64,000 nt of DNA from an uncultured bacterium (GTDB lineage: Bacteria; Fermentibacterota; Fermentibacteria; Fermentibacterales; JCC-6), in NCBI GenBank assembly GCA_964553045.1, contig CAZKJG010000003.1, positions 81,829 through 145,828 of the forward strand. Direction: 5' to 3'. Every line of letters starts with the position of its first letter. Position 1 is the first letter of the stretch. Shown piece by piece: positions 13,016 through 28,679 of this stretch. Position numbers and translations under genes: made by a program. The notes below the pieces were generated by a model. The model was not told the DNA's origin, made no database searches, and was given only the letters and a program-made list of their open reading frames with translations.

Positions 13016-13933
13016 GTGAGAGATCTGCTGCGAAACCCCGGTAGCCTCTTTGTGCCGGTTACCGACAGAAGCTACCGGATAATCATCTGGGTTACCGGAG
13101 GCTACAGCCTGCTGGTCTCCGTTATCCCCCTGCTGAGACTGGTTCCCCGCCCCCCCCTGCAGCTCGGCATCTGGATTGCCTGCTATCTGCTCTACCGCCT
13201 GAGGCCGATACCGGAGAGCGTGCGCAGGTGGGTCTTCTACGTTTTCCTCTTCGTTACCTATCCGGCCCTGCGGAACGTGGTCACCAGCTACCACGCCAGC
13301 TTCCACTGCGCCGACGTGATAGCAGCGGAGCGCTGGATATTCGGCTTCCTCCCCACCTACCGGCTGCAGCTGCTGCTCAACCCGGGGGGCACGCTGAAGT
13401 GGTTCGACTACGTGTTCGCCGCCTTCCACGCCACCATCTTCTGGCTTCCCGTAGTGTTTCCCGCTATTCTGCTGGCGGCCCGGGGGCCTGAGAGGATGAA
13501 GCGGGCCACGGTGGGCCTGACCATCATATCCCTGGCCGGCTACCTGACCTACGTCCTCTACCCGGTTACCCCGCCCTGGATGGCCAGCCTGGAGGGGCAG
13601 GCTCCCCGCATGTCCAGGGTGGTGTTCAGGGCCCTGGGCAGGATGGTGCCCGGCAGCGTGGCCGACGCCTTCCAGCCCAGCCCCAGGGGCGCCATGCCAT
13701 CCCTCCATGCCGGGGTGCCCCTGCTGATCGTCATGATGGCCATCAGGGAGTACGGCCGGAGGGCGGCCTGGGTTTTCCTGCCGGCTGCAGTGATTATCTT
13801 CGAGATCGTCTACGGAGCCGAGCACTACGTCGTGGATGTGATGGCCGGCGCTCTGTACGCCGTGATCACCTACCTGGTGGTCTACCGGGTTCTGCTGCCC
13901 CGGGTGAGCGAGGGCGCAGAGAGCCCCGGCTGA
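13016..13933 (+). CDS. PAP2-superfamily membrane protein, inositol phosphorylceramide synthase (Aur1/Ipt1)-like
   Basis: YPVTPPWM, AMPSLHAG and EHYVVDV motifs with multiple TM helices. Confidence 0.75.
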   Translation: MRDLLRNPGSLFVPVTDRSYRIIIWVTGGYSLLVSVIPLLRLVPRPPLQLGIWIACYLLYRLRPIPESVRRWVFYVFLFVTYPALRNVVTSYHASFHCADVIAAERWIFGFLPTYRLQLLLNPGGTLKWFDYVFAAFHATIFWLPVVFPAILLAARGPERMKRATVGLTIISLAGYLTYVLYPVTPPWMASLEGQAPRMSRVVFRALGRMVPGSVADAFQPSPRGAMPSLHAGVPLLIVMMAIREYGRRAAWVFLPAAVIIFEIVYGAEHYVVDVMAGALYAVITYLVVYRVLLPRVSEGAESPG

Positions 13934-16458: not shown

Positions 16459-17075
16459 TAGAAGACCGCCTGCGCATCAGCCTGCAAGAACCGGAGCGGG
16501 GGACCCTGGACAGGGTCTCCCGCGTTCTCGACGGGGGGGGCACGGTCCTCTACCCGTCGGACACCGTATACGGCCTGCTCTGCGACGCATCCAGCCCCAG
16601 TGCGCTGGCTCGCATGGCCCGCCTCAAGGGTTACACCAAACGAAGGCCCTTCATCGTCCTGGTGGACGGCATGGACTCCGCCAGGGACCTGGCCCGATTC
16701 TCCACCAGAGCCCTGGGTCTGGCGGCGGCCTTCTGGCCCGGTCCGCTGACCCTGGTGCTGCCCGCCGGCGAGAAGGCGCCCTCCCACGTACTCAGCGAGT
16801 CCGGTGAGATCGCCGTCCGCCGGCCCGCCGACCCCCTCTCCCGGGGGCTGCTTGCCGGGCTGGGGCGTCCGCTGGCCAGCACCAGCGCCAACCCCGCCGG
16901 CGCCCCCCATCCGCACATTCTGTCGGATGTGGAGGAAGATATCGCCGCAGGGTGCGTCCTGGTGCTGGACGGAGGTGAGCTGCCGAGCCGGCCCCCGTCA
17001 ACCGTGGTCAGGGTCCGGGATGGAGAGGTGGAGCTGCTGCGGGAAGGGGCCGTCCCCCTCGGCAGGCTGAGCTAA
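16455..17075 (+). CDS. tsaC: L-threonylcarbamoyladenylate synthase (YrdC/Sua5 family), probable CTG start
   Basis: The conserved N-terminal YPSDTVYGL lies upstream of the first in-frame ATG (16614). Also WPGPLTLV and STSAN motifs. CTG at 16455 overlaps the purE TGA. Confidence 0.85.
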
Positions 17076-17540
17076 AGGCCTGCAGGACCGGTCTGAGCAC
17101 CCGTCTCGCCGGGCTCGATGTCGGAGATGGCGCCGGCGTAGAAGCGGCCGGCCACGAATACGTCCTGGTGCCGCGCCCGAAAGGCTCCGCCGGTGCTAGT
17201 CCCAGCTCTCGCCGAAGTCGAGGGTGGTATCCATGTAGCCCTTGTCGAAGGCGTTGGCGCGGCCGGTGATGATGATGTCCGGCTGGGTGGTTCCCGCGTC
17301 TATGGAGTATACCTCGCGACCCATCATGCCGTTCTCCTCCACCACGGTCCACTGGCTCGATGCCAGGTCCCAGCTGTGGAAGCCCTCGTAGGTGCCCACC
17401 AGCATCCTGCCCCCGTTCCCGTCCCAGGTGATGCAGTTGCTCACCGTGGACTCCATGGCCAGGTCCTCCCACTGCACGTCCTCGCCGGAGAAGGCCATGG
17501 CGGCAGAGACTGCCAGGGCTGTCAGAAGAAGTGCTCTCAT
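17072..17540 (-). pseudogene. Truncated secreted beta-propeller (BNR/Asp-box) gene remnant
   Basis: Signal peptide MRALLLTALAVSAAMA (ATG 17540), one Asp-box TLDFGESW, TAG at 17196-17198. A short coding-like continuation in another frame (TSTGGAF...) runs to 17072. Confidence 0.45.
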
Positions 17541-17688
17541 CGTCCGTAGCTCCTTTCGGTTATTTAGCAAATCGAGCAACCCGCTCGAAAGCGGAACTGG
17601 ATTAAAATATATTTGAACCAATGTCAAATTTTTTGCATGAATGCACGGATGCCGGCATAATGAGGTTAACTACCCTGTGGCAGAGGGC

Positions 17689-19815
17689 TTATCCACCCCA
17701 TACGGCTATTCGGACCGCCTTGAGGAAGGAGGGGGGATGGAGCAGTATGTTGGAGTACGCCTGGTTGGCCAGGGGACAGGCGCACTCGCCGCGGCGTATG
17801 GACCTCCGCACCTTCCAGGCGGTGTGGGAGTCCCAGATCGCACGGAAGTCGTTCTCGTCGTCCAGCACGCCCATCTCTCCGGAGTAGGCGAGGACGGCAC
17901 ACGGCCAGACGGAGCCGTCGGCGTTCACATGGACGTTGAGGATCCCGGCGTAGCAGGGGATCACCTGGCGGTCCTCCTCCAGTATTCGGACCACCAGATC
18001 GTAGTAGACCATTCGCATGGCGGTGGTAATGCGGCCCAGAAGGTGCATTCCCCTCATCTGTCGGGCCACCGAATCCTTGAAGGTCTGCATGATCTTCCCG
18101 TATCTGCTGCCCTCCGGGGTGATGCCGCTGCCTATGTTGTAGAACTCCTCCCGCTCCTCGGCTATCTCGTTGATGTAGGTGTCCACTTCCAGGCTGCGGG
18201 CGAACTCGATTATCTCCCCCAGGCGGTCGGCGTTGTAGCGCGAGATCACCGTTCCCACACCCACGTGCAGGTACCTGTGTCGCGCGCGCAGGGCCTTCAG
18301 CCTGCCCAGTGTGTCCAGCAGCTTCTCGAAGTTCCCGGGGACTCCCCGGATCTCGTCGTGCAGCTCGCCCACCCCGTCCATGGACGGCTTGATGGTGAGT
18401 ACCGTACCGGGGGCCTCCTCCTCGATGGCCTGAAGGGTCCGTTCGGTGAGCCGCTCTATGCGCTCCGGCATGAGGGCATTGGTGGGAATGTGCACCACAG
18501 CCGGATGCATGTGCCGGCATGCCAGGCGGACGATCTCCGGCAGGTCGTCCCGAAGAAAGGGCTCCCCGCCGGAGACGTTGAAGAAGTAGGTCCAGCCTAT
18601 GGAGCGGAAGAGCATCTCTATCCCCGGAAGGTCCAGCTCCTCGCCCTGAGGCCGATGCTTCCAGATGAAGCATGTCCTGCATCGGGACTGGCATCTCATT
18701 GTAACCGAGAAGGTGACGTTTATGGGGTGCGGCGGCCTTGCCAGGCCCAGCCTGGCAAGCATGGCGGTGGCCATGCTCCAGGCCAGGTGAGAAAGCTGGG
18801 TGAGGTGGTTCATCCTCACCGGGTAGCGCTTCTGCAGGAAATCGTGGATCACCGCCTGCAGGGCGAATCCTCCCTCCACCAGCAGCACGATGAGCCTCTG
18901 GCCCAGGGCGATGGTGGTGGCCACCGCCATTCCCCCCGAAACGAATCCCGAGAGGAGCAGGCCGCGTACGGATTCCCGGACCCCTATCCCGCCGGGGATG
19001 AAGACCATGGCCAGGGCCACCAGCCAGGAGGCGGGGGCGGCCAGCAGGCACACGGCGACCATGGCGTAGGAGGGGTCGGAGGAGGGGACCCCGAACCCCC
19101 TGAACCAGGCGTACAGCGCCAGGCCCCGCAGCCCCCAGGAGAGCAGGTGGTAGCCGATGAAGCTGAACTGGTGCCGGTGAGATATGTGCGGCAGGTCCGT
19201 GATATCCGTGCCCATGCGGTGGCTGAAGGCCCGGGCTATGCGGCGCTGGATGCCGGGGGCGAAGAGCATCAGCACCGCAAGTCCCACGGATATCCAAAGG
19301 ACGATGATCACCGCCAGGGGAACGTCCGCCAGGCTGAGGAAGGGCAGGGCCACCAGGGCCAGTATGCTCAGCGCCACCATCATGTAGATGTTCTCCAGTA
19401 TCAGGGCGGTGAAGCCCTTCACCGAGCTGACCCCGTTGCTGCCCAGGAAGCTCACCCGGCCCACCACCATCCAGACCTTTCCGGGCACGTAGGCCCCCAT
19501 CTGGGTGGTGTACCAGTTCCGCCGCAGCCTGCCGCGGTCTATGGCCGGTGTCTTCAGGGCCTGGAGTATTCGGGCCCAGGCGTGGGGGGCGAAGTAGTAG
19601 CCGCCCCACAGCAGAAGGAAGGAAACAACGAGAGTGGGCCAGCTGGCATTCTGGCGGGAGCCCTCCCAGAACCTCTGCAGCTCCGGCTGCCAGCGGGGCC
19701 AAAGATCCAGGGCGAAGTAGATTCCCGCCCCCACCAGCAGGACCACTCCCCCCCAGGTGGAGATGTGGTGGAAGAGCCTCCTGTGCCTGCTCAAGAGGCC
19801 CTTCCCCTGCGCCAC
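17689..19815 (-). CDS. Fusion: UPF0104/LPG-synthase-type membrane domain plus radical SAM domain with twitch/SPASM-type Cys tail
   Basis: N-terminal ~310 aa TM region (AYVPGKVW, IPGGIGVRE); CQSRCRTC (CxxxCxxC), SGGEP, PSMDG..HDEIRG; C-terminal Cx17Cx38CxC. Confidence 0.85.
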   Translation of the reverse strand: MAQGKGLLSRHRRLFHHISTWGGVVLLVGAGIYFALDLWPRWQPELQRFWEGSRQNASWPTLVVSFLLLWGGYYFAPHAWARILQALKTPAIDRGRLRRNWYTTQMGAYVPGKVWMVVGRVSFLGSNGVSSVKGFTALILENIYMMVALSILALVALPFLSLADVPLAVIIVLWISVGLAVLMLFAPGIQRRIARAFSHRMGTDITDLPHISHRHQFSFIGYHLLSWGLRGLALYAWFRGFGVPSSDPSYAMVAVCLLAAPASWLVALAMVFIPGGIGVRESVRGLLLSGFVSGGMAVATTIALGQRLIVLLVEGGFALQAVIHDFLQKRYPVRMNHLTQLSHLAWSMATAMLARLGLARPPHPINVTFSVTMRCQSRCRTCFIWKHRPQGEELDLPGIEMLFRSIGWTYFFNVSGGEPFLRDDLPEIVRLACRHMHPAVVHIPTNALMPERIERLTERTLQAIEEEAPGTVLTIKPSMDGVGELHDEIRGVPGNFEKLLDTLGRLKALRARHRYLHVGVGTVISRYNADRLGEIIEFARSLEVDTYINEIAEEREEFYNIGSGITPEGSRYGKIMQTFKDSVARQMRGMHLLGRITTAMRMVYYDLVVRILEEDRQVIPCYAGILNVHVNADGSVWPCAVLAYSGEMGVLDDENDFRAIWDSHTAWKVRRSIRRGECACPLANQAYSNILLHPPSFLKAVRIAVWGG

Positions 19816-23925: not shown

Positions 23926-25025
23926 CGCAGGCTCTCCAGCAGGGCCTCGGCGTACCTTCGCCAGCTGAACTCCCCCGCCTTGCTGAGCACTAGCTCCTTC
24001 GTTTGTGCCGATTGGGATATCGAAATAGCCGAACTTACCGCTTCCGCGATGCTCTCCGGCTCTCCTGCCTCAGCTACGAAACCCGTCACGCCGTGTTCGA
24101 CCATCTCGGCGAGTCCACCGACATTTGTCACAACCAGCGGTAATCCGAAGGAGAGTGCAATTTGGCCCACCCCGCTCTGGGTCGCATGGCGATATGGAAG
24201 AGCGACTGCATCGGCAGCCCGGAAGAACTTGCCCACCTCATTGTCGGAGACGAAGCGGTCTATCCATGTGGCTCTTCCGGCTGCGAACGACTTGCTAAGC
24301 GCGGATAGATACGGTGACGCATCCTCGTATGGCTCACCGACGATGAGCAGGCGGATGTTCTCGTCGAGATGCTTCAAAGCGCTTATCAGGTCGAGTAACC
24401 CCTTGTATGGCCTGACAAGCCCGAAGAAGAGCACCACACGTTCCTGGGAGGAGTAGCCCATATCCTCCCTGGCGGATTCCCTGGACGGAGCCGTTCTGGT
24501 GTACTGGTCGTAAATAGGGTGGTAGAGCTTAACAAGGCCTGTTCTATCGCACACTTGTCTGGCCTTCTTCAGGTCCTCGTTGGAATGGACTATCGCCACT
24601 TCCGCCTTCTTCAGGATTTGCCTGGCGAGGATACGGGAAAAGGGGAATGGATCATGCGGCACGACATTGTGACAGATTGCGGCAGTTTGTAAACCGCCGG
24701 GAAGACTCCCGAGTATGCAGGGCGCGAAGAACGGATGCCACCAGGCAAATATTGTGACGTCGTAGTTATTCCTTGAGATGAGCCTTCTGGCTCTGAACCA
24801 GGTCATGGGATTGATGGAGCTGAGGGCATGAGTTGTGGGTACTGGTGATTTGGCTCCCTCATTGTACTGCGTCTTCCCGGGGAAAAGGAATCCTGGATAG
24901 AGCAGCGAATATGATATGGCTGTCACAGTATTTCCCATGTAAGAGAGTTGTGCAGCCAAGCGCGAGGAGAACTCCGATATTCCCCCTCTGAACGGGGGCA
25001 TGGGGGACACAAGGACGATTCTCAA
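23922..25025 (-). CDS. Glycosyltransferase family 4 (GT-B), lower-GC gene
   Basis: GGISEF N-terminal motif, FFGLVRPYKG, LPYRHATQSGV, PLVVTNVGGLAE. Confidence 0.9.
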   Translation of the reverse strand: MRIVLVSPMPPFRGGISEFSSRLAAQLSYMGNTVTAISYSLLYPGFLFPGKTQYNEGAKSPVPTTHALSSINPMTWFRARRLISRNNYDVTIFAWWHPFFAPCILGSLPGGLQTAAICHNVVPHDPFPFSRILARQILKKAEVAIVHSNEDLKKARQVCDRTGLVKLYHPIYDQYTRTAPSRESAREDMGYSSQERVVLFFGLVRPYKGLLDLISALKHLDENIRLLIVGEPYEDASPYLSALSKSFAAGRATWIDRFVSDNEVGKFFRAADAVALPYRHATQSGVGQIALSFGLPLVVTNVGGLAEMVEHGVTGFVAEAGEPESIAEAVSSAISISQSAQTKELVLSKAGEFSWRRYAEALLESLR

Positions 25026-25139
25026 TGAGCCTCCTCCTTCCCCTCCTGTAGATTATGGCCCCGAAACTTCAGCTTGACTGCAGTATAAGGAAAGAGAATA
25101 TCCTAAACAGGATGTGGGTGTTTGGGAAGGAGTAATATT

Positions 25140-26902
25140 GTGAAGCTTCTGGGATTGCTTTTGATTGTCTGCACCACAGCTGTCACAGCTTTCTAAGATG
25201 ATTTTGAAGATGAGTACATTGATGACTGGGTGCAGAGGTGCAACGGTTCTGCTGAATGGTGGGCAGAAAATGGGAAGGCATGGAGCTCTTGCGATGGGCC
25301 AACTGGACTCGCTGCCCCGCGGAGGAGCGAAAGAACATCCTTATAACCACTAATGTAACCGGATACCATGCGTTTGGAGTTTTTGCCCGGTTGGATGCAA
25401 GCGATAACGGAATATGCGCATATGTCTCTCCAGACAATAATGTTGCGCGTATCAGGCTGATCAGCAACGGAGAGCTGGGCAGCACGCTGGGTGATATATA
25501 CGCACCATTTCCGAGTGATGATTATGAGATGAGTTTCTCCTGTGATGATGAAGTCCTGGTTTTCTGGTTTGAGGCCGTCGGCTCGGGGCAGACATGGCAG
25601 CTGACTGCGTCGGATCCTAATCCGCAATCCGGCGGCTATGGGCTGCTTGCAGGTTCTGAGCCCGAGTCAGCCTGGGAGTGGTTCGAGGCAGAAAGTTATG
25701 GAACCGGTGACGCTCAGCTTTCCGCCATGGAGGTAGACGATGACAACGCCGGCTGGTCCTCTGGAAATGGCGACGGAGCCTTTGAGGCCGGAGAGGCAAT
25801 TGAGCTGGGACTCTGCCTAGACAATGTGGGTGGAGATACGCTACACAACGTATCGGCCGTATTGCAGTCGTTGTCCTCTGAGATATCCGTTCCCATAAGC
25901 AACTGCGATTTCGGACACATACCCCCCGGCGAATCAGTCTGGTCCCTGTCTGACTATGGTGTTGAGGCAGAAGTATCCGCGCCGGAGGACGAGACCTACC
26001 CCTTCAGGCTCACCGTGTTCGCAGACGGGGGCTACAGCAGCGTCCACGAGTTCGACCTGCCCCTGGGCTGCGGCATCGAGTTCGACATGGAGGGCGACAC
26101 CGATGCCTGGTACACCACTTCCCTCGGCAGCGGATGGGGCGATCAGTGGCACCAGTCGGGCCAGCGCAACCATACGCCGGAGGGCTCTGAGAGCTTCAAG
26201 TGCGGCGACACCGGCTACGGTGACTACGACGACGGGCTGCACGGCGCCCTGGTCAGCCCGCTGTTCAACGTGCCCCATGACGCCACGCTTTCGTTCTGGA
26301 TGTGGATAGACGCTCAGTGCGTCCGCAGCGGCGAGGCCTACGACGGCGGCCGGCTGCAGATAGGCCAGCTGGGCAGCTGGGAGGACCTGGAACCCCTCGG
26401 CGGGTACCCCTATCAGATCGTATCCGAAACGACCGGTCCGTTCGAGCCGGGGACCGGCGTATGGTCGGGCACCGCCGGCTGGCAGGAGCAGACGTGGGAG
26501 ATTCCCGAGGAGTTCTCCGGACCGCGGCGGCTGCGCTGGGTGTTCGGCAGCGACCAGACCGGCAGCCGCGAGGGCTGGTTCATCGACGACCTGGTAGTCG
26601 AGGGTCTGATGGGAACGGCCGGGGAGTCGGGCAGTCCGATTCCCGGGAACCTGCAGCTGTCGGCGGCTCCCAACCCGTTCCATTCCGCGGTGGGGATATC
26701 CGTTTCCGGCCTCCTGCCCGGCGAGACCGCGCAGGTGGAGATCTACGACCTGGCCGGGCGGAAGGTCTTTGGGACTGCCGTGGGCTCGGCGGAAGGCGGG
26801 CACGCTACGGTGAGCTGGAGCGGAGGCTCCGCCGGTCTCTACCTGGTGCGGGCCACCCGTGACGGCGAGATCCGCACAATCCGGGTGGTGAGGACGGAGT
26901 AG
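25140..26902 (+). pseudogene. Secreted multidomain protein with T9SS-like C-terminal domain, disrupted near the 5' end (or sequencing errors)
   Basis: RBS GAAGGAG then GTG 25140 encoding VKLLGLLLIVCTTAVTAF, in-frame TAA at 25194-25196, then DDFEDEYIDDW... to TAA 25344-25346. The rest is in another frame (ORF 25256..26902) ending PNPFHS...IYDLAGRKV...GLYLVR...IRVVRTE. Confidence 0.65.
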
Positions 26903-27923: not shown

Positions 27924-28679
27924 TCAACCTCCCCGGGACCATTCGCAGCTCTCGACGTCGGCGCCGTCGGCGCAGATGGAGACGCCGGCGGAGTCGACCC
28001 GTGCCCAGCTGAAGCTCTTAATCCAGTCCCCCAGAGATAGATGGAGGCCACCTGGAAGGACGCGAAGGGCGGGAACGTGGGTGTGGGCGGTGACCACGAG
28101 GTCGGCCGAATCCAGCTGACCTGCCGCCCATGCGGCCAGGCCGGACGGAAGCTCCTCCATGCTGCGTCTGAGGATACGACGGCTTGTGCCGGAGAAAAGC
28201 CGTGCCAGGCTCCTGCCGGCGTCGGGGTGGAGAAGGCCGAACAGCAGGGCTGAAAGGCGGGAGCGAATGAGAGGCCTCAGCAGAAGGCGGTACCCGAGAT
28301 CTCCATGGCCCAGACCGTCTCCGTGGGTCAGCACCGCCGGCCGGCCGGCCAGCTCGGTCCGCACCACGCGCTCGGTCAGCACCCTGGCTCCCGTGGCCTC
28401 CGCGAAATGTGAACCCAGCCAGCTGTCGTGGTTGCCCGGAAGCGCCCGGATGCTCCATTCGGCGTCGGAAAGTGCCCTGAGGGCGGAGAGAACCCGCCAG
28501 TGGCCGGCCGGGGCCACCGAACGGTATTCGAACCAGAAGTCGAAGAGATCGCCCAGTATCCAGAGGGTTGCAGGATCCCGCCCTTGCAGCCCGCCGAGGA
28601 AGTCGAGAAGCCGCTTACGCCCCGGGTGCTCAATGGATTCGGGAAACAGGTGGGCGTCGGCGATCAGGTAGTGGGTCAC
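27924..28679 (-). CDS. lpxH: UDP-2,3-diacylglucosamine diphosphatase-like metallophosphoesterase
   Basis: ADAHL, LGDLFDFW, PGNHD, HGDGL, AHTH motifs. Confidence 0.75.
   Translation of the reverse strand: MTHYLIADAHLFPESIEHPGRKRLLDFLGGLQGRDPATLWILGDLFDFWFEYRSVAPAGHWRVLSALRALSDAEWSIRALPGNHDSWLGSHFAEATGARVLTERVVRTELAGRPAVLTHGDGLGHGDLGYRLLLRPLIRSRLSALLFGLLHPDAGRSLARLFSGTSRRILRRSMEELPSGLAAWAAGQLDSADLVVTAHTHVPALRVLPGGLHLSLGDWIKSFSWARVDSAGVSICADGADVESCEWSRGG

Follow-up and report, generated by a model that had tools for sequence, protein, structure and literature searches.

The stretch of DNA analyzed here (the window) comprises 64,000 nucleotides from an uncultured bacterium of the phylum Fermentibacterota (assembly GCA_964553045.1, contig CAZKJG010000003.1, positions 81,829 to 145,828 of the forward strand). 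Its minus strand carries a gene whose single reading frame encodes a flippase-like membrane module followed by a radical S-adenosylmethionine (SAM) enzyme. This fusion gene is the last in a row of genes for glycosyltransferases (GTs), a short-chain dehydrogenase/reductase (SDR), and further membrane proteins (Table 1).

The fusion gene and its conservation

The fused open reading frame (ORF; positions 17689 to 19815) encodes 708 amino acids (aa) from a GTG start at 19815. The GC content of the DNA here is 66%, and other frames over the same span are also open (678–752 aa); family matches and homologues were found only for the minus-strand frame. A TTG codon at 19794, whose TTGA overlaps the stop of the upstream gene, may be the true start in place of the GTG, since members of the fusion's cluster are called at either 701 or 708 aa; this start would give a protein of 701 aa and leaves an uncertainty of seven codons. 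The frame belongs to two Pfam families by score, LPG_synthase_TM (PF03706, equivalent to PplT/UPF0104; aa 56–303, 47.6 bits against a gathering cutoff of 33.4) and Radical_SAM (PF04055; aa 370–539, 45.6 bits against 29.5), with a marginal match to SPASM (PF13186; aa 621–680, 22.4 bits against 21.5). The SAM-cluster motif CxxxCxxC (C375-x3-C379-x2-C382; window 18670–18693) is followed by GGEP at 416–419 (18559–18570) and by four C-terminal cysteines (C621-x17-C639-x38-C678-x-C680; 17776–17955); GGEP and all seven cysteines, three plus four, show no variation among 60 aligned sequences, whether fused or stand-alone. The original prediction, made from the sequence alone, had described a flippase-like transmembrane (TM) domain joined to a twitch-type radical SAM enzyme with a four-cysteine auxiliary site, and the Pfam domains and the motifs agree with that description. 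An AlphaFold 2 (AF2) model of the whole protein reached a mean predicted local distance difference test (pLDDT) of 87.3 and a predicted template-modeling score (pTM) of 0.84. A scan of the window against Rfam gave no matches.

Table 1. Fusion gene, its two parts, and the accompanying operon in the window (positions counted from the first letter of the window)
Feature	Position	Strand	Basis
Fusion gene: MprF-Subdomain-1-like (PplT/LPG_synthase_TM) module plus twitch radical SAM enzyme	17689..19815	(-)	ORF and translation, Pfam, orthologues, AF2
Membrane module, aa 1–334, 11 helices	18814..19815	(-)	Pfam PF03706, AF2, Foldseek, invariant columns
Radical SAM/twitch catalytic domain, aa 335–708 plus stop	17689..18813	(-)	Pfam PF04055 and PF13186, invariant residues, folds
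YfhO-like GT-C membrane glycosyltransferase (putative), 766 aa	19791..22091	(-)	Weak Pfam YfhO match, homology to locus L004, synteny
Second flippase-like (PplT/LPG_synthase_TM) gene, stand-alone, ~316 aa	22088..23038	(-)	PF03706, 24.6 bits on a longer ORF
NAD(P)-dependent extended SDR ("Epimerase"), 296 aa	23035..23925	(-)	Pfam Epimerase, 73.8 bits
GT4 glycosyltransferase, 367 aa	23922..25025	(-)	Pfam Glycos_transf_1/Glyco_trans_1_4
ArnC/PgfS/AglJ-like GT2, 329 aa	26953..27942	(-)	NCBIfam, synteny
Metallophosphatase-family gene, 251 aa, first of the conserved cluster	27924..28679	(-)	Pfam Metallophos, 23.9 bits; position kept in relatives

In a search of 5.8 billion proteins, the fused frame was recovered in about 90 clusters of 680–725 aa that have the same three domains and 51–94% identity. 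These clusters come from NCBI, JGI, ENA, and Logan assemblies, and those with names all belong to Candidatus Fermentibacteria, Aegiribacteria, or Sabulitectum. Because the frame recurs in so many clusters from independent assemblies, it is not a product of chance, assembly error, or stop loss; the ~90 conserved clusters, together with 10 of 10 syntenic loci, rule out an artifact. The original prediction had conceded that it would fail if close relatives encoded the halves as two genes, and the outcome favors it: close relatives keep the fusion, and two separate genes are confined to other phyla, where they represent an evolutionarily split state (Clostridia, locus L024).

The same prediction had pointed to an internal ATG (MNHLTQ; aa 335, window 18813) as a possible separate start, and this suggestion fared less well. 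The codon does align with the start of stand-alone orthologues, and a string resembling a Shine-Dalgarno sequence, GGTGAGG, lies directly 5′ of it. Against two products stand the absence of any spacer between that string and the ATG, the replacement of methionine by V, L, I, or W in 12 of the 44 fused orthologues (it is kept in 32), a junction segment whose length is fixed (65 aa in 38 of the 44), and the AF2 model, in which the last TM helix (296–330) joins the first radical SAM helix (332–355) almost directly, continuously, and with pLDDT above 90. The fusion is obligate and rigid, and a gene yielding two products is unlikely; taken together, an assembly error, a strain-specific stop loss, and separate manufacture of the halves from the ATG have next to no probability, given a continuous frame that persists down to 51% identity in four independent data sources.

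Relatives of the two halves

The helices of the membrane module were taken from the AF2 model, Kyte-Doolittle TM prediction being uninformative. When the full-length model was used for a fold search, hits to the radical SAM half prevailed and no MprF stood among the top 50; the membrane half was therefore modeled separately (pLDDT 89.7). Foldseek matched this model to six MprF structures in the PDB (probability 1.0; query-normalized template-modeling score, TMq, 0.52–0.60; about 340 columns), the next hits reaching a TMq of at most 0.22. Neither single-sequence nor profile searches of the PDB returned an MprF; the fold search alone did so. The membrane half is confidently predicted to have the fold of MprF Subdomain 1.

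In the MprF of Rhizobium (RtMprF), Subdomain 1 (Leu24–Arg325) is made up of TM1, 2, 3a/3b, 4–6, 7a/7b, and 8 and lines the inner-leaflet cavity; Subdomain 2 (TM9–14) supplies most of the helices that line the outer cavity; a salt bridge between Arg304 of TM8 and Glu280 parts the inner from the outer cavity; and the synthase domain is cytosolic, positioned by the membrane domain for the uptake of its substrate from the membrane (PMC8131360). MprF acts as a promiscuous scramblase (PMC11980842). The module in the window has two pairs of short helices (94–107/113–126 and 249–269/276–291) that resemble TM3a/3b and TM7a/7b. Among 47 sequences, the motif PGGIGVRE (aa 274–281; window 18973–18996), which contains E281, is invariant, as is R307 on the last helix (window 18895–18897). 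E281 and R307 are collinear with Glu280 and Arg304 of RtMprF and would correspond to its gate pair, an equivalence taken from collinearity because the sequence profile could not be aligned to the MprF chains. The module ends at about aa 330, after the equivalent of TM8, and the radical SAM domain follows directly in the place of Subdomain 2. Since Subdomain 1 is followed in MprF by another six TM helices and then by the cytosolic synthase, the C-terminal end of the module probably lies in the cytoplasm; the radical SAM domain would then be cytoplasmic too, where SAM and reductants are available.

The fusion thus shares with MprF the plan of a single chain in which a lipid-translocating membrane domain precedes a cytoplasmic enzyme that modifies head groups, in the same order, as well as the size, helix pattern, and invariant Glu/Arg pair of Subdomain 1; MprF is the only PDB match of its TM half. 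The two differ in that the enzyme is a radical SAM/twitch domain in the window and a tRNA-dependent GNAT-type synthase in MprF, that Subdomain 2 (TM9–14) is missing and the operon instead encodes a separate paralogous module, that the junction is a rigid helix-to-helix connection where MprF has a flexible loop, and that the substrate is probably a sugar rather than an aminoacyl group. The fusion is not an MprF, because both Subdomain 2 and the aminoacyl-phosphatidylglycerol synthase (tandem GNAT) domain are absent.

In the radical SAM half, the β-hairpin and helix of the twitch region are modeled at aa 621–691. The hairpin of SPASM and twitch domains has the motif CX9-15GX4C, and SPASM domains extend it to a seven-cysteine motif, CX9-15GX4C...CX2CX5CX3C...C. 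The spacing C621-x12-G-x4-C639 fits the hairpin, and it is followed only by C678-x-C680, so that four C-terminal cysteines stand in place of the seven, with two auxiliary clusters, of the SPASM subfamily. Because only two more cysteines follow C621 and C639, one auxiliary cluster is expected instead of two, and the sequence suggests a single, fully cysteine-ligated [4Fe-4S] cluster of the twitch type. Assignment to the twitch subfamily agrees with the invariance of these four cysteines and with a fold match to BtrN (target-normalized template-modeling score, TMt, 0.60), an enzyme with one auxiliary cluster.

No curated NCBIfam model reaches its cutoff with this half. The best is that of an archaeal thermoacidophile family, PTO1314 (TIGR03961), which aligns over the full length at 67.1 bits against a cutoff of 306; PqqE and others fall far below theirs, as do the lipid-tail enzymes Tes (41 of 450 bits) and HpnH (25 of 225 bits). 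Sequence hits in the PDB cover the common core only (SkfB, 27.8 bits; Tes, 7tol, 25 bits), and neither BtrN nor DesII appeared at E≤1. Fold searches returned the general SPASM/twitch set, namely SkfB, DesII, anSME, SuiB, and BlsE (TMt 0.65), in addition to BtrN.

The family to which this half belongs is large: an exhaustive HMMER scan of 1.84 billion representatives yielded 447 clusters with the threshold at E≤1e-30 and 3,507 with it at E≤1e-10. Its members, which span many bacterial phyla and archaea, are almost all stand-alone proteins of 340–395 aa (typically ~390 aa), and the Fermentibacterota fusions all fall into one 50% cluster. Among metagenomic members, the radical SAM domain is also fused to a preceding GT2 (P0245, 671 aa), to a following PTPS_related domain, a GT-C-like membrane protein (P0194, 722 aa), and to a following FAD_binding_6 domain, possibly a built-in reductase or electron donor (P0139, 658 aa). 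A further metagenomic member is joined to a HEAT/LRV repeat protein (P0162, 584 aa).

The operon and its counterparts in other phyla

In 10 of 10 other Fermentibacterota loci, the genes run in the order metallophosphatase, GT2, GT4, SDR, flippase-like, YfhO-like, and fusion. In the window, the GT4, SDR, flippase-like, and YfhO-like genes are linked on the minus strand by overlapping stops and starts, and the end of the YfhO-like gene overlaps the start of the fusion, the last gene. The second flippase-like gene encodes a protein paralogous to the TM half of the fusion (32% identity over 239 aa, E 9e-20), and PF03706 is annotated for this gene in relatives. All Fermentibacterota loci hold two paralogous modules resembling MprF Subdomain 1, one free and one fused, which may pair and so compensate for the absent MprF Subdomain 2. 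The SDR, which is proposed as the reductase partner of the radical SAM domain, is a full-length orthologue of the SDR next to stand-alone radical SAM genes (28% identity, E 1e-21, with that of Delta proteobacterium NaphS2), and the GT4 is likewise related over its full length to the GT4 abutting the NaphS2 radical SAM gene (29% identity, E 5e-39). The GT2 is probably of the polyprenyl-phosphate type, given its full-length likeness to ArnC (184.5 bits, cutoff 529) and its matches to PgfS (106 bits), AglJ (80), and PpgS (56), all of them below the equivalog cutoffs. The 766-aa protein scores 25 bits against Pfam YfhO, below the gathering cutoff of 28.5, and also matches PgfM1/2; it is homologous (E 1e-36 over 387 aa, plus a C-terminal domain) to a Pfam-annotated YfhO encoded directly 3′ of a stand-alone radical SAM gene in another phylum (locus L004). 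The Pfam scan of the window operon detected no deacetylase and no FAD oxidase.

Counterparts of the radical SAM gene were collected in a scan of species-representative genomes that gave 80 loci, including those of NaphS2, Pelotomaculum terephthalicicum, and Tengunoibacter tsumagoiensis, and archaeal loci from Methanosarcinales, Methanomassiliicoccales, Methanomicrobiales, and Micrarchaeota. Their neighbors were scanned with domain-restricted profiles built from the window's proteins, in 75 dereplicated loci from outside the Fermentibacterota. A GT2, GT4, or SDR domain lies on the same strand within 2 kb in 55 of the 75, and an unbiased Pfam scan identified 27 GT2, 12 GT4, 11 Epimerase-type SDRs, and 7 methyltransferases among 144 immediate neighbors. 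In the close clade (at least 46% identity; n=29), GT4 is the most constant neighbor: it is found within 2 kb in 16 loci and the SDR in 13, and both occur within 6 kb in 18. In the distant clade (n=46), a GT2 lies within 2 kb in 30. These associations are local, in that the share of flank sides occupied by a GT4 drops with distance (15/50 at 0–2 kb, 1/44 at 2–4 kb, and 6/34 at 6–8 kb), and that for GT2 in the distant clade is 29/79 at 0–2 kb against 5/54 at 6–8 kb. Both GT4 and SDR are full-length orthologues across phyla.

Individual loci illustrate the module. In NaphS2 the order is PAP2 ... GT4, radical SAM, SDR, methyltransferase; in Pelotomaculum, geranylgeranyl-reductase-like, GT2, GT4, radical SAM, SDR ... 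GT4, acyltransferase; and in a member of the Desulfobacteraceae, PMT_2 (GT-C), a 767-aa ORF without a Pfam match, a methyltransferase::GT2 fusion, radical SAM, GT4 ... SDR. GT-C genes (YfhO or PMT_2) adjoin the radical SAM gene in L004 and L026, and locus L005 has radical SAM, SDR, and methyltransferase genes with no GT adjacent. In two loci of Clostridia an LPG_synthase_TM gene accompanies the radical SAM gene: L024 reads SDR, methyltransferase, LPG_TM, radical SAM, the last two genes overlapping by 4 bp in the order of the fusion, and L030 (Lachnospiraceae) reads GT4, SDR, methyltransferase, radical SAM, DUF362/ferredoxin, LPG_TM-like. These two loci are the unfused state of the pair that is fused in Fermentibacterota.

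DUF362 proteins, some with 4Fe-4S ferredoxin domains, recur in the stand-alone GT4-SDR-radical SAM clusters (L004, 2599–4986; L030, 3748–4875) and are absent from the window operon; their role could be that of a dedicated electron donor or of an additional Fe-S enzyme in the pathway. The radical SAM family also occurs in Ktedonobacteria, at L057 (T. tsumagoiensis) and at L043–L046 and L076 (Ktedonobacteraceae and other Chloroflexota), a branch in which the closest SDR gene lies farther away or on the other strand, so that the SDR link is looser. Ktedonobacteria are aerobes, and the family is thus not confined to anaerobes. The NaphS2 SDR (L037, 11114–12109, plus strand) matches PDB entry 3WJ7 over its full length at 157 bits; that entry was deposited only as a "putative oxidoreductase," and no literature on it was found. 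A close relative of the partner enzyme thus has a solved structure but no assigned function.

Other features of the window and of related loci concern the surroundings of the operon. A 548-aa gene on the plus strand (25256–26902), with a weak match to a C-terminal sorting domain of the type IX secretion system (Por_Secre_tail, 24.9 bits), lies between GT2 and GT4 where the GC content falls to 0.54 (24001–26000); GT2 and GT4 are contiguous in every other Fermentibacterota locus examined, and the gene looks like a lineage-specific insertion that divides the cluster into a pair of transcription units. Genes were called in three Fermentibacterota loci, and in each a PAP2_3 lipid-phosphatase gene belongs to a PAP2-panB-purD-purE-Sua5 block that converges on the operon (L007, 15014–15976; L008, 14181–15068; L009, 14844–15743), and another lies about 3 kb from the NaphS2 radical SAM gene (L037, 5895–7073), a proximity that may be coincidence or may reflect a link to lipid-phosphate recycling. 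The corresponding region of the window is 13016–13933 on the plus strand. There, where relatives have the end of PAP2_3, ARAGORN called an unusually long tRNA-Gln(CTG) of 93 nt (13819–13911, plus strand), which is probably a false positive; Rfam reported no tRNA there at its gathering cutoff. In the Fermentibacterota loci that diverge most (L007, 11100–11819; L009, 11087–11770), the gene after the fusion is of the creatininase family; the window and L008 lack it, and positions 17075–17689 of the window hold only short ORFs without family matches.

A proposed route, its alternatives, and known systems

Systems in which a membrane lipid is glycosylated, tailored, and handed to an MprF-like protein are known. 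GpgSDF of Pseudomonas aeruginosa, which makes glucosaminyl-phosphatidylglycerol, comprises the GT4 GpgS, a tailoring deacetylase, and a UPF0104/MprF-like flippase without a synthase domain (PMC12713373), and HexSDF of Clostridioides difficile, which makes an aminohexosyl glycolipid, likewise comprises a lipid glycosyltransferase, a tailoring deacetylase, and a UPF0104/MprF-like flippase (PMC10128005). With MprF, these two systems are better comparators than AglD and HpnL, which the original prediction had cited. The window has the same kind of set on one strand with overlapping stops and starts (GT4, SDR, LPG_TM, and LPG_TM::radical SAM), with the differences that radical SAM and SDR take the place of the deacetylase, that the tailoring enzyme and flippase are fused, and that an ArnC-like GT2 and a YfhO-like GT-C are added. 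It is not an orthologue of either system, because its GT4 scores 48.7 bits against a cutoff of 480 with the GlcN_PG_synth (GpgS) model and no deacetylase is present. The GT2, the GT-C, and the candidate flippases also recall three-component polyprenyl-phosphate systems (ArnC-ArnD-ArnE/F-ArnT, CsbB-GtcA-YfhO, PgfS/PgfM, and pentofuranose systems); in contrast to these, the flippase candidates are of the MprF type and not small GtrA/ArnEF-type proteins, there is an extra GT4, and the close-clade radical SAM gene tracks GT4 and SDR more tightly than GT2 or GT-C. ArnD and DprE1/DprE2 tailor a sugar while it is on its lipid carrier. The oxidation followed by SDR reduction that is proposed below resembles DprE1/DprE2, a pair of an FAD-dependent oxidase and a classical SDR, in logic only, with a radical SAM enzyme in place of the flavoenzyme DprE1.

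For the chemistry, BtrN, DesII, and BlsE offer a radical SAM core followed by a C-terminal cysteine-rich auxiliary-cluster domain (TMt 0.60–0.65), and AprD4/AprD3 offers a radical SAM dehydratase paired with an NADPH-dependent reductase (PMC5461906), much as radical SAM and SDR are paired here. The likeness to BtrN, DesII, and AprD4 is one of fold, common to all SPASM/twitch enzymes, with no specific sequence relationship; unlike the window protein, BtrN, DesII, BlsE, and AprD4 are soluble enzymes without a fused membrane domain, and their substrates are soluble antibiotic intermediates or nucleotide sugars. The calditol synthase Cds and the hopanoid enzyme HpnJ are radical SAM enzymes that act on a sugar which a membrane lipid already carries (PMC13459092); they have not been reported as membrane fusions, their proposed chemistry is ring contraction, and the comparison with them is by description.

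The original prediction knew of no characterized example of the architecture, and this judgment holds. In addition to the NCBIfam result, full-text literature searches returned no paper on the LPG_TM-radical SAM architecture or on the radical SAM family. A survey naming the PplT domain lists 148 architectures, among them fusions to aminoacyl-phosphatidylglycerol synthase, GT-A, GT-B, kinases, methyltransferases, and O-antigen ligases, and does not contain the word "radical." A 2026 review of radical SAM enzymes of lipid metabolism covers Tes, Mss, Gms, GrsA/B, Gmm, Cds, HpnH/J/P/R, Jaw5, and the ladderane enzymes (PMC13459092); it describes no membrane-fused or flippase-linked enzyme and uses neither "flippase" nor "transmembrane" (PMC13459092). 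We infer a bifunctional protein that modifies and translocates a lipid by radical chemistry, built upon a large orphan GT4-radical SAM-SDR module.

The reading toward which we lean, somewhat better than evenly, has a lipid-linked sugar remodeled at the inner leaflet by the radical SAM domain together with the SDR, in a step coupled to translocation. Only the anatomy of the protein and the gene associations are demonstrated, and each step of the route is conjectural. The fusion would be a bifunctional inner-membrane protein on the MprF plan, with a cytoplasmic enzyme joined to a lipid-binding or lipid-translocating membrane module. A cytoplasmic glycosyltransferase, most likely the GT4 or alternatively the ArnC-like GT2, would load a sugar onto a lipid of the inner leaflet. 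The inner-leaflet cavity of the Subdomain-1-like module would hold this lipid, and the radical SAM domain would sit directly on the last TM helix; SAM would be cleaved, a hydrogen abstracted from the sugar, and an electron passed to the single auxiliary [4Fe-4S] cluster, yielding a carbonyl intermediate either directly, as with BtrN, DesII, and anSME, or after loss of water, as with AprD4. The co-conserved NAD(P)H-dependent SDR would then reduce the carbonyl, giving an epimerized or deoxygenated sugar. The fused module, probably together with the paralogue encoded two genes upstream as a substitute for the missing Subdomain 2, would carry the lipid-linked sugar to the outer leaflet, where the ArnC-like GT2, the second flippase-like protein, and the YfhO-like GT-C would form a three-component arm that uses or decorates the product. 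As to the carrier, a glycerolipid head group is a tentative choice, favored by the tight GT4 link and the known substrates of MprF, GpgF, and HexF; polyprenyl phosphate, favored by the ArnC-like GT2, the GT-C enzymes, and the geranylgeranyl-reductase-like gene, is put forward with slightly more reserve.

The idea in the original prediction that the enzyme tailors a lipid-linked sugar as it is passed across the membrane is thus upheld in part: the GT and SDR context, the GT2::radical SAM and radical SAM::GT-C-like fusions, and the MprF fold speak for it, and its substrate, reaction, and translocation step are conjecture. Several observations weigh against it. Among the representative clusters of the family, 446 of 447 are soluble-looking stand-alone proteins, and the N-terminal helix of stand-alone orthologues has no amphipathic signature (mean maximal hydrophobic moment 0.30, against 0.33 for shuffled sequences), so that a membrane-binding helix in these proteins is unsupported. 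The neighbors found by fold search are generic for SPASM/twitch enzymes and include peptide maturases, and the nearest solved relatives of the SDR, nucleotide-sugar 4,6-dehydratases and epimerases, would suit a soluble nucleoside diphosphate (NDP)-sugar equally well. The matching of E281 and R307 to the MprF gate rests on collinear position, the profile having missed MprF, and translocation by the module alone is uncertain because Subdomain 2, the main liner of the outer cavity in MprF, is absent. The flippase activity of the comparators GpgF and HexF is itself unproven (PMC12713373, PMC10128005).

Some of these points feed the strongest alternative, which we nevertheless consider unlikely: the substrate of the radical SAM domain would be a soluble nucleotide sugar, the SDR would work as an ordinary NDP-sugar dehydratase, epimerase, or reductase, with the methyltransferase acting where present, and an unusual donor would be delivered to the GT4 or GT2; the fusion would then merely co-localize donor synthesis, or the module would be an independent flippase. 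The closest solved relatives of the SDRs are TDP-glucose 4,6-dehydratases and UDP-sugar epimerases, the substrates of the fold neighbors DesII, BlsE, viperin, and MoaA are in each case nucleotide-linked, a membrane segment is missing from almost every family member, and at L005 the radical SAM-SDR-methyltransferase set stands without an adjacent GT. On the other side, a junction that is rigid, fixed in length, and linkerless exceeds what simple co-localization would need; the independent fusions of family members to GT2 and to a GT-C-like protein and the translationally coupled LPG_TM-radical SAM genes of Clostridia point to the lipid-loading step or later; and in MprF the catalytic domain is held by the membrane domain where it can draw its substrate from the bilayer.

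Quite improbable is a special case of sugar tailoring on the lipid in which a lipid-linked hexose undergoes ring contraction or is turned into a carbocycle, giving a cyclitol-type head group as proposed for Cds and HpnJ, with the SDR finishing the redox step. It draws on the fact that the full-length best-scoring curated family, PTO1314, is archaeal and that the radical SAM family itself has archaeal members; yet 67 bits against a cutoff of 306 exclude membership in PTO1314, and any identity of PTO1314 with Cds is conjectural. HpnJ, moreover, is a B12-binding-type radical SAM enzyme, unlike the twitch enzyme of the window. The precedent remains: of the known radical SAM enzymes, two, Cds and HpnJ, rework a sugar linked to a lipid (PMC13459092). 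Slightly less probable still is modification of the lipid part, a polyprenyl or acyl chain, for example by C-C bond formation or cyclization as in Tes, GrsA/B, or HpnH, the membrane module then presenting the hydrocarbon chain. The lipid-modifying enzymes Tes and Hbs belong to the SPASM/twitch group, and the Pelotomaculum cluster contains a geranylgeranyl-reductase-like gene; but the matches to Tes and HpnH are weak and generic, far below the cutoffs and limited to the common core, the constant partners (GT4, SDR, and often a methyltransferase) are a typical sugar-tailoring set, and the conserved operon has no lipid-synthesis genes. That the domain matures a peptide of ribosomal origin that is modified after translation (a RiPP) or modifies a protein, as most SPASM-domain proteins do, is rejected as very improbable, for although SkfB, SuiB, PqqE, anSME, and EpeE are among the top sequence or fold hits, these are low-scoring and limited to the common core, the domain has four C-terminal cysteines where SPASM maturases have seven, and the gene context (the Pfam scan of 144 neighbors) is overwhelmingly one of glycosyltransferases and SDRs, with no annotated gene for a precursor peptide, a protease, or an exporter in the loci inspected gene by gene.

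If sugar tailoring on the lipid is the function, the fusion would serve as a "Rosetta stone" that places the substrate of an orphan radical SAM family (447 clusters at E≤1e-30) in the membrane and gives the family a defined assay with lipid-linked sugars, the SDR, and NAD(P)H; NaphS2, Pelotomaculum, and Tengunoibacter are cultured carriers of the unfused module. The principle of MprF, GpgSDF, and HexSDF, in which a lipid is modified at the inner leaflet and passed to a built-in translocator, would extend from aminoacylation and deacetylation to radical chemistry. Flavin-dependent tailoring of lipid-linked sugars, as by DprE1/DprE2, would gain an alternative. In poorly known phyla (Fermentibacterota, Cloacimonadota, Desulfobacterota, and Chloroflexota), the product would then be a candidate for a biomarker or a determinant of the envelope. 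A bolder proposal, offered as a speculation that will more probably prove wrong than right, is that the GT4-radical SAM-SDR module makes, by radical chemistry, a lipid head group or lipid-carried sugar not seen before, for which carbocyclic (calditol-like), deoxy, or epimerized sugars formed on the lipid are candidates, and that the fusion is the first "radical MprF," an enzyme in which radical SAM chemistry on a lipid head group is tied directly to the passage of that lipid across the bilayer. Because stand-alone members occur in many bacterial phyla, most of them anaerobic, and in several lineages of archaea, such a pathway would be a widespread and unrecognized modification of the cell envelope.

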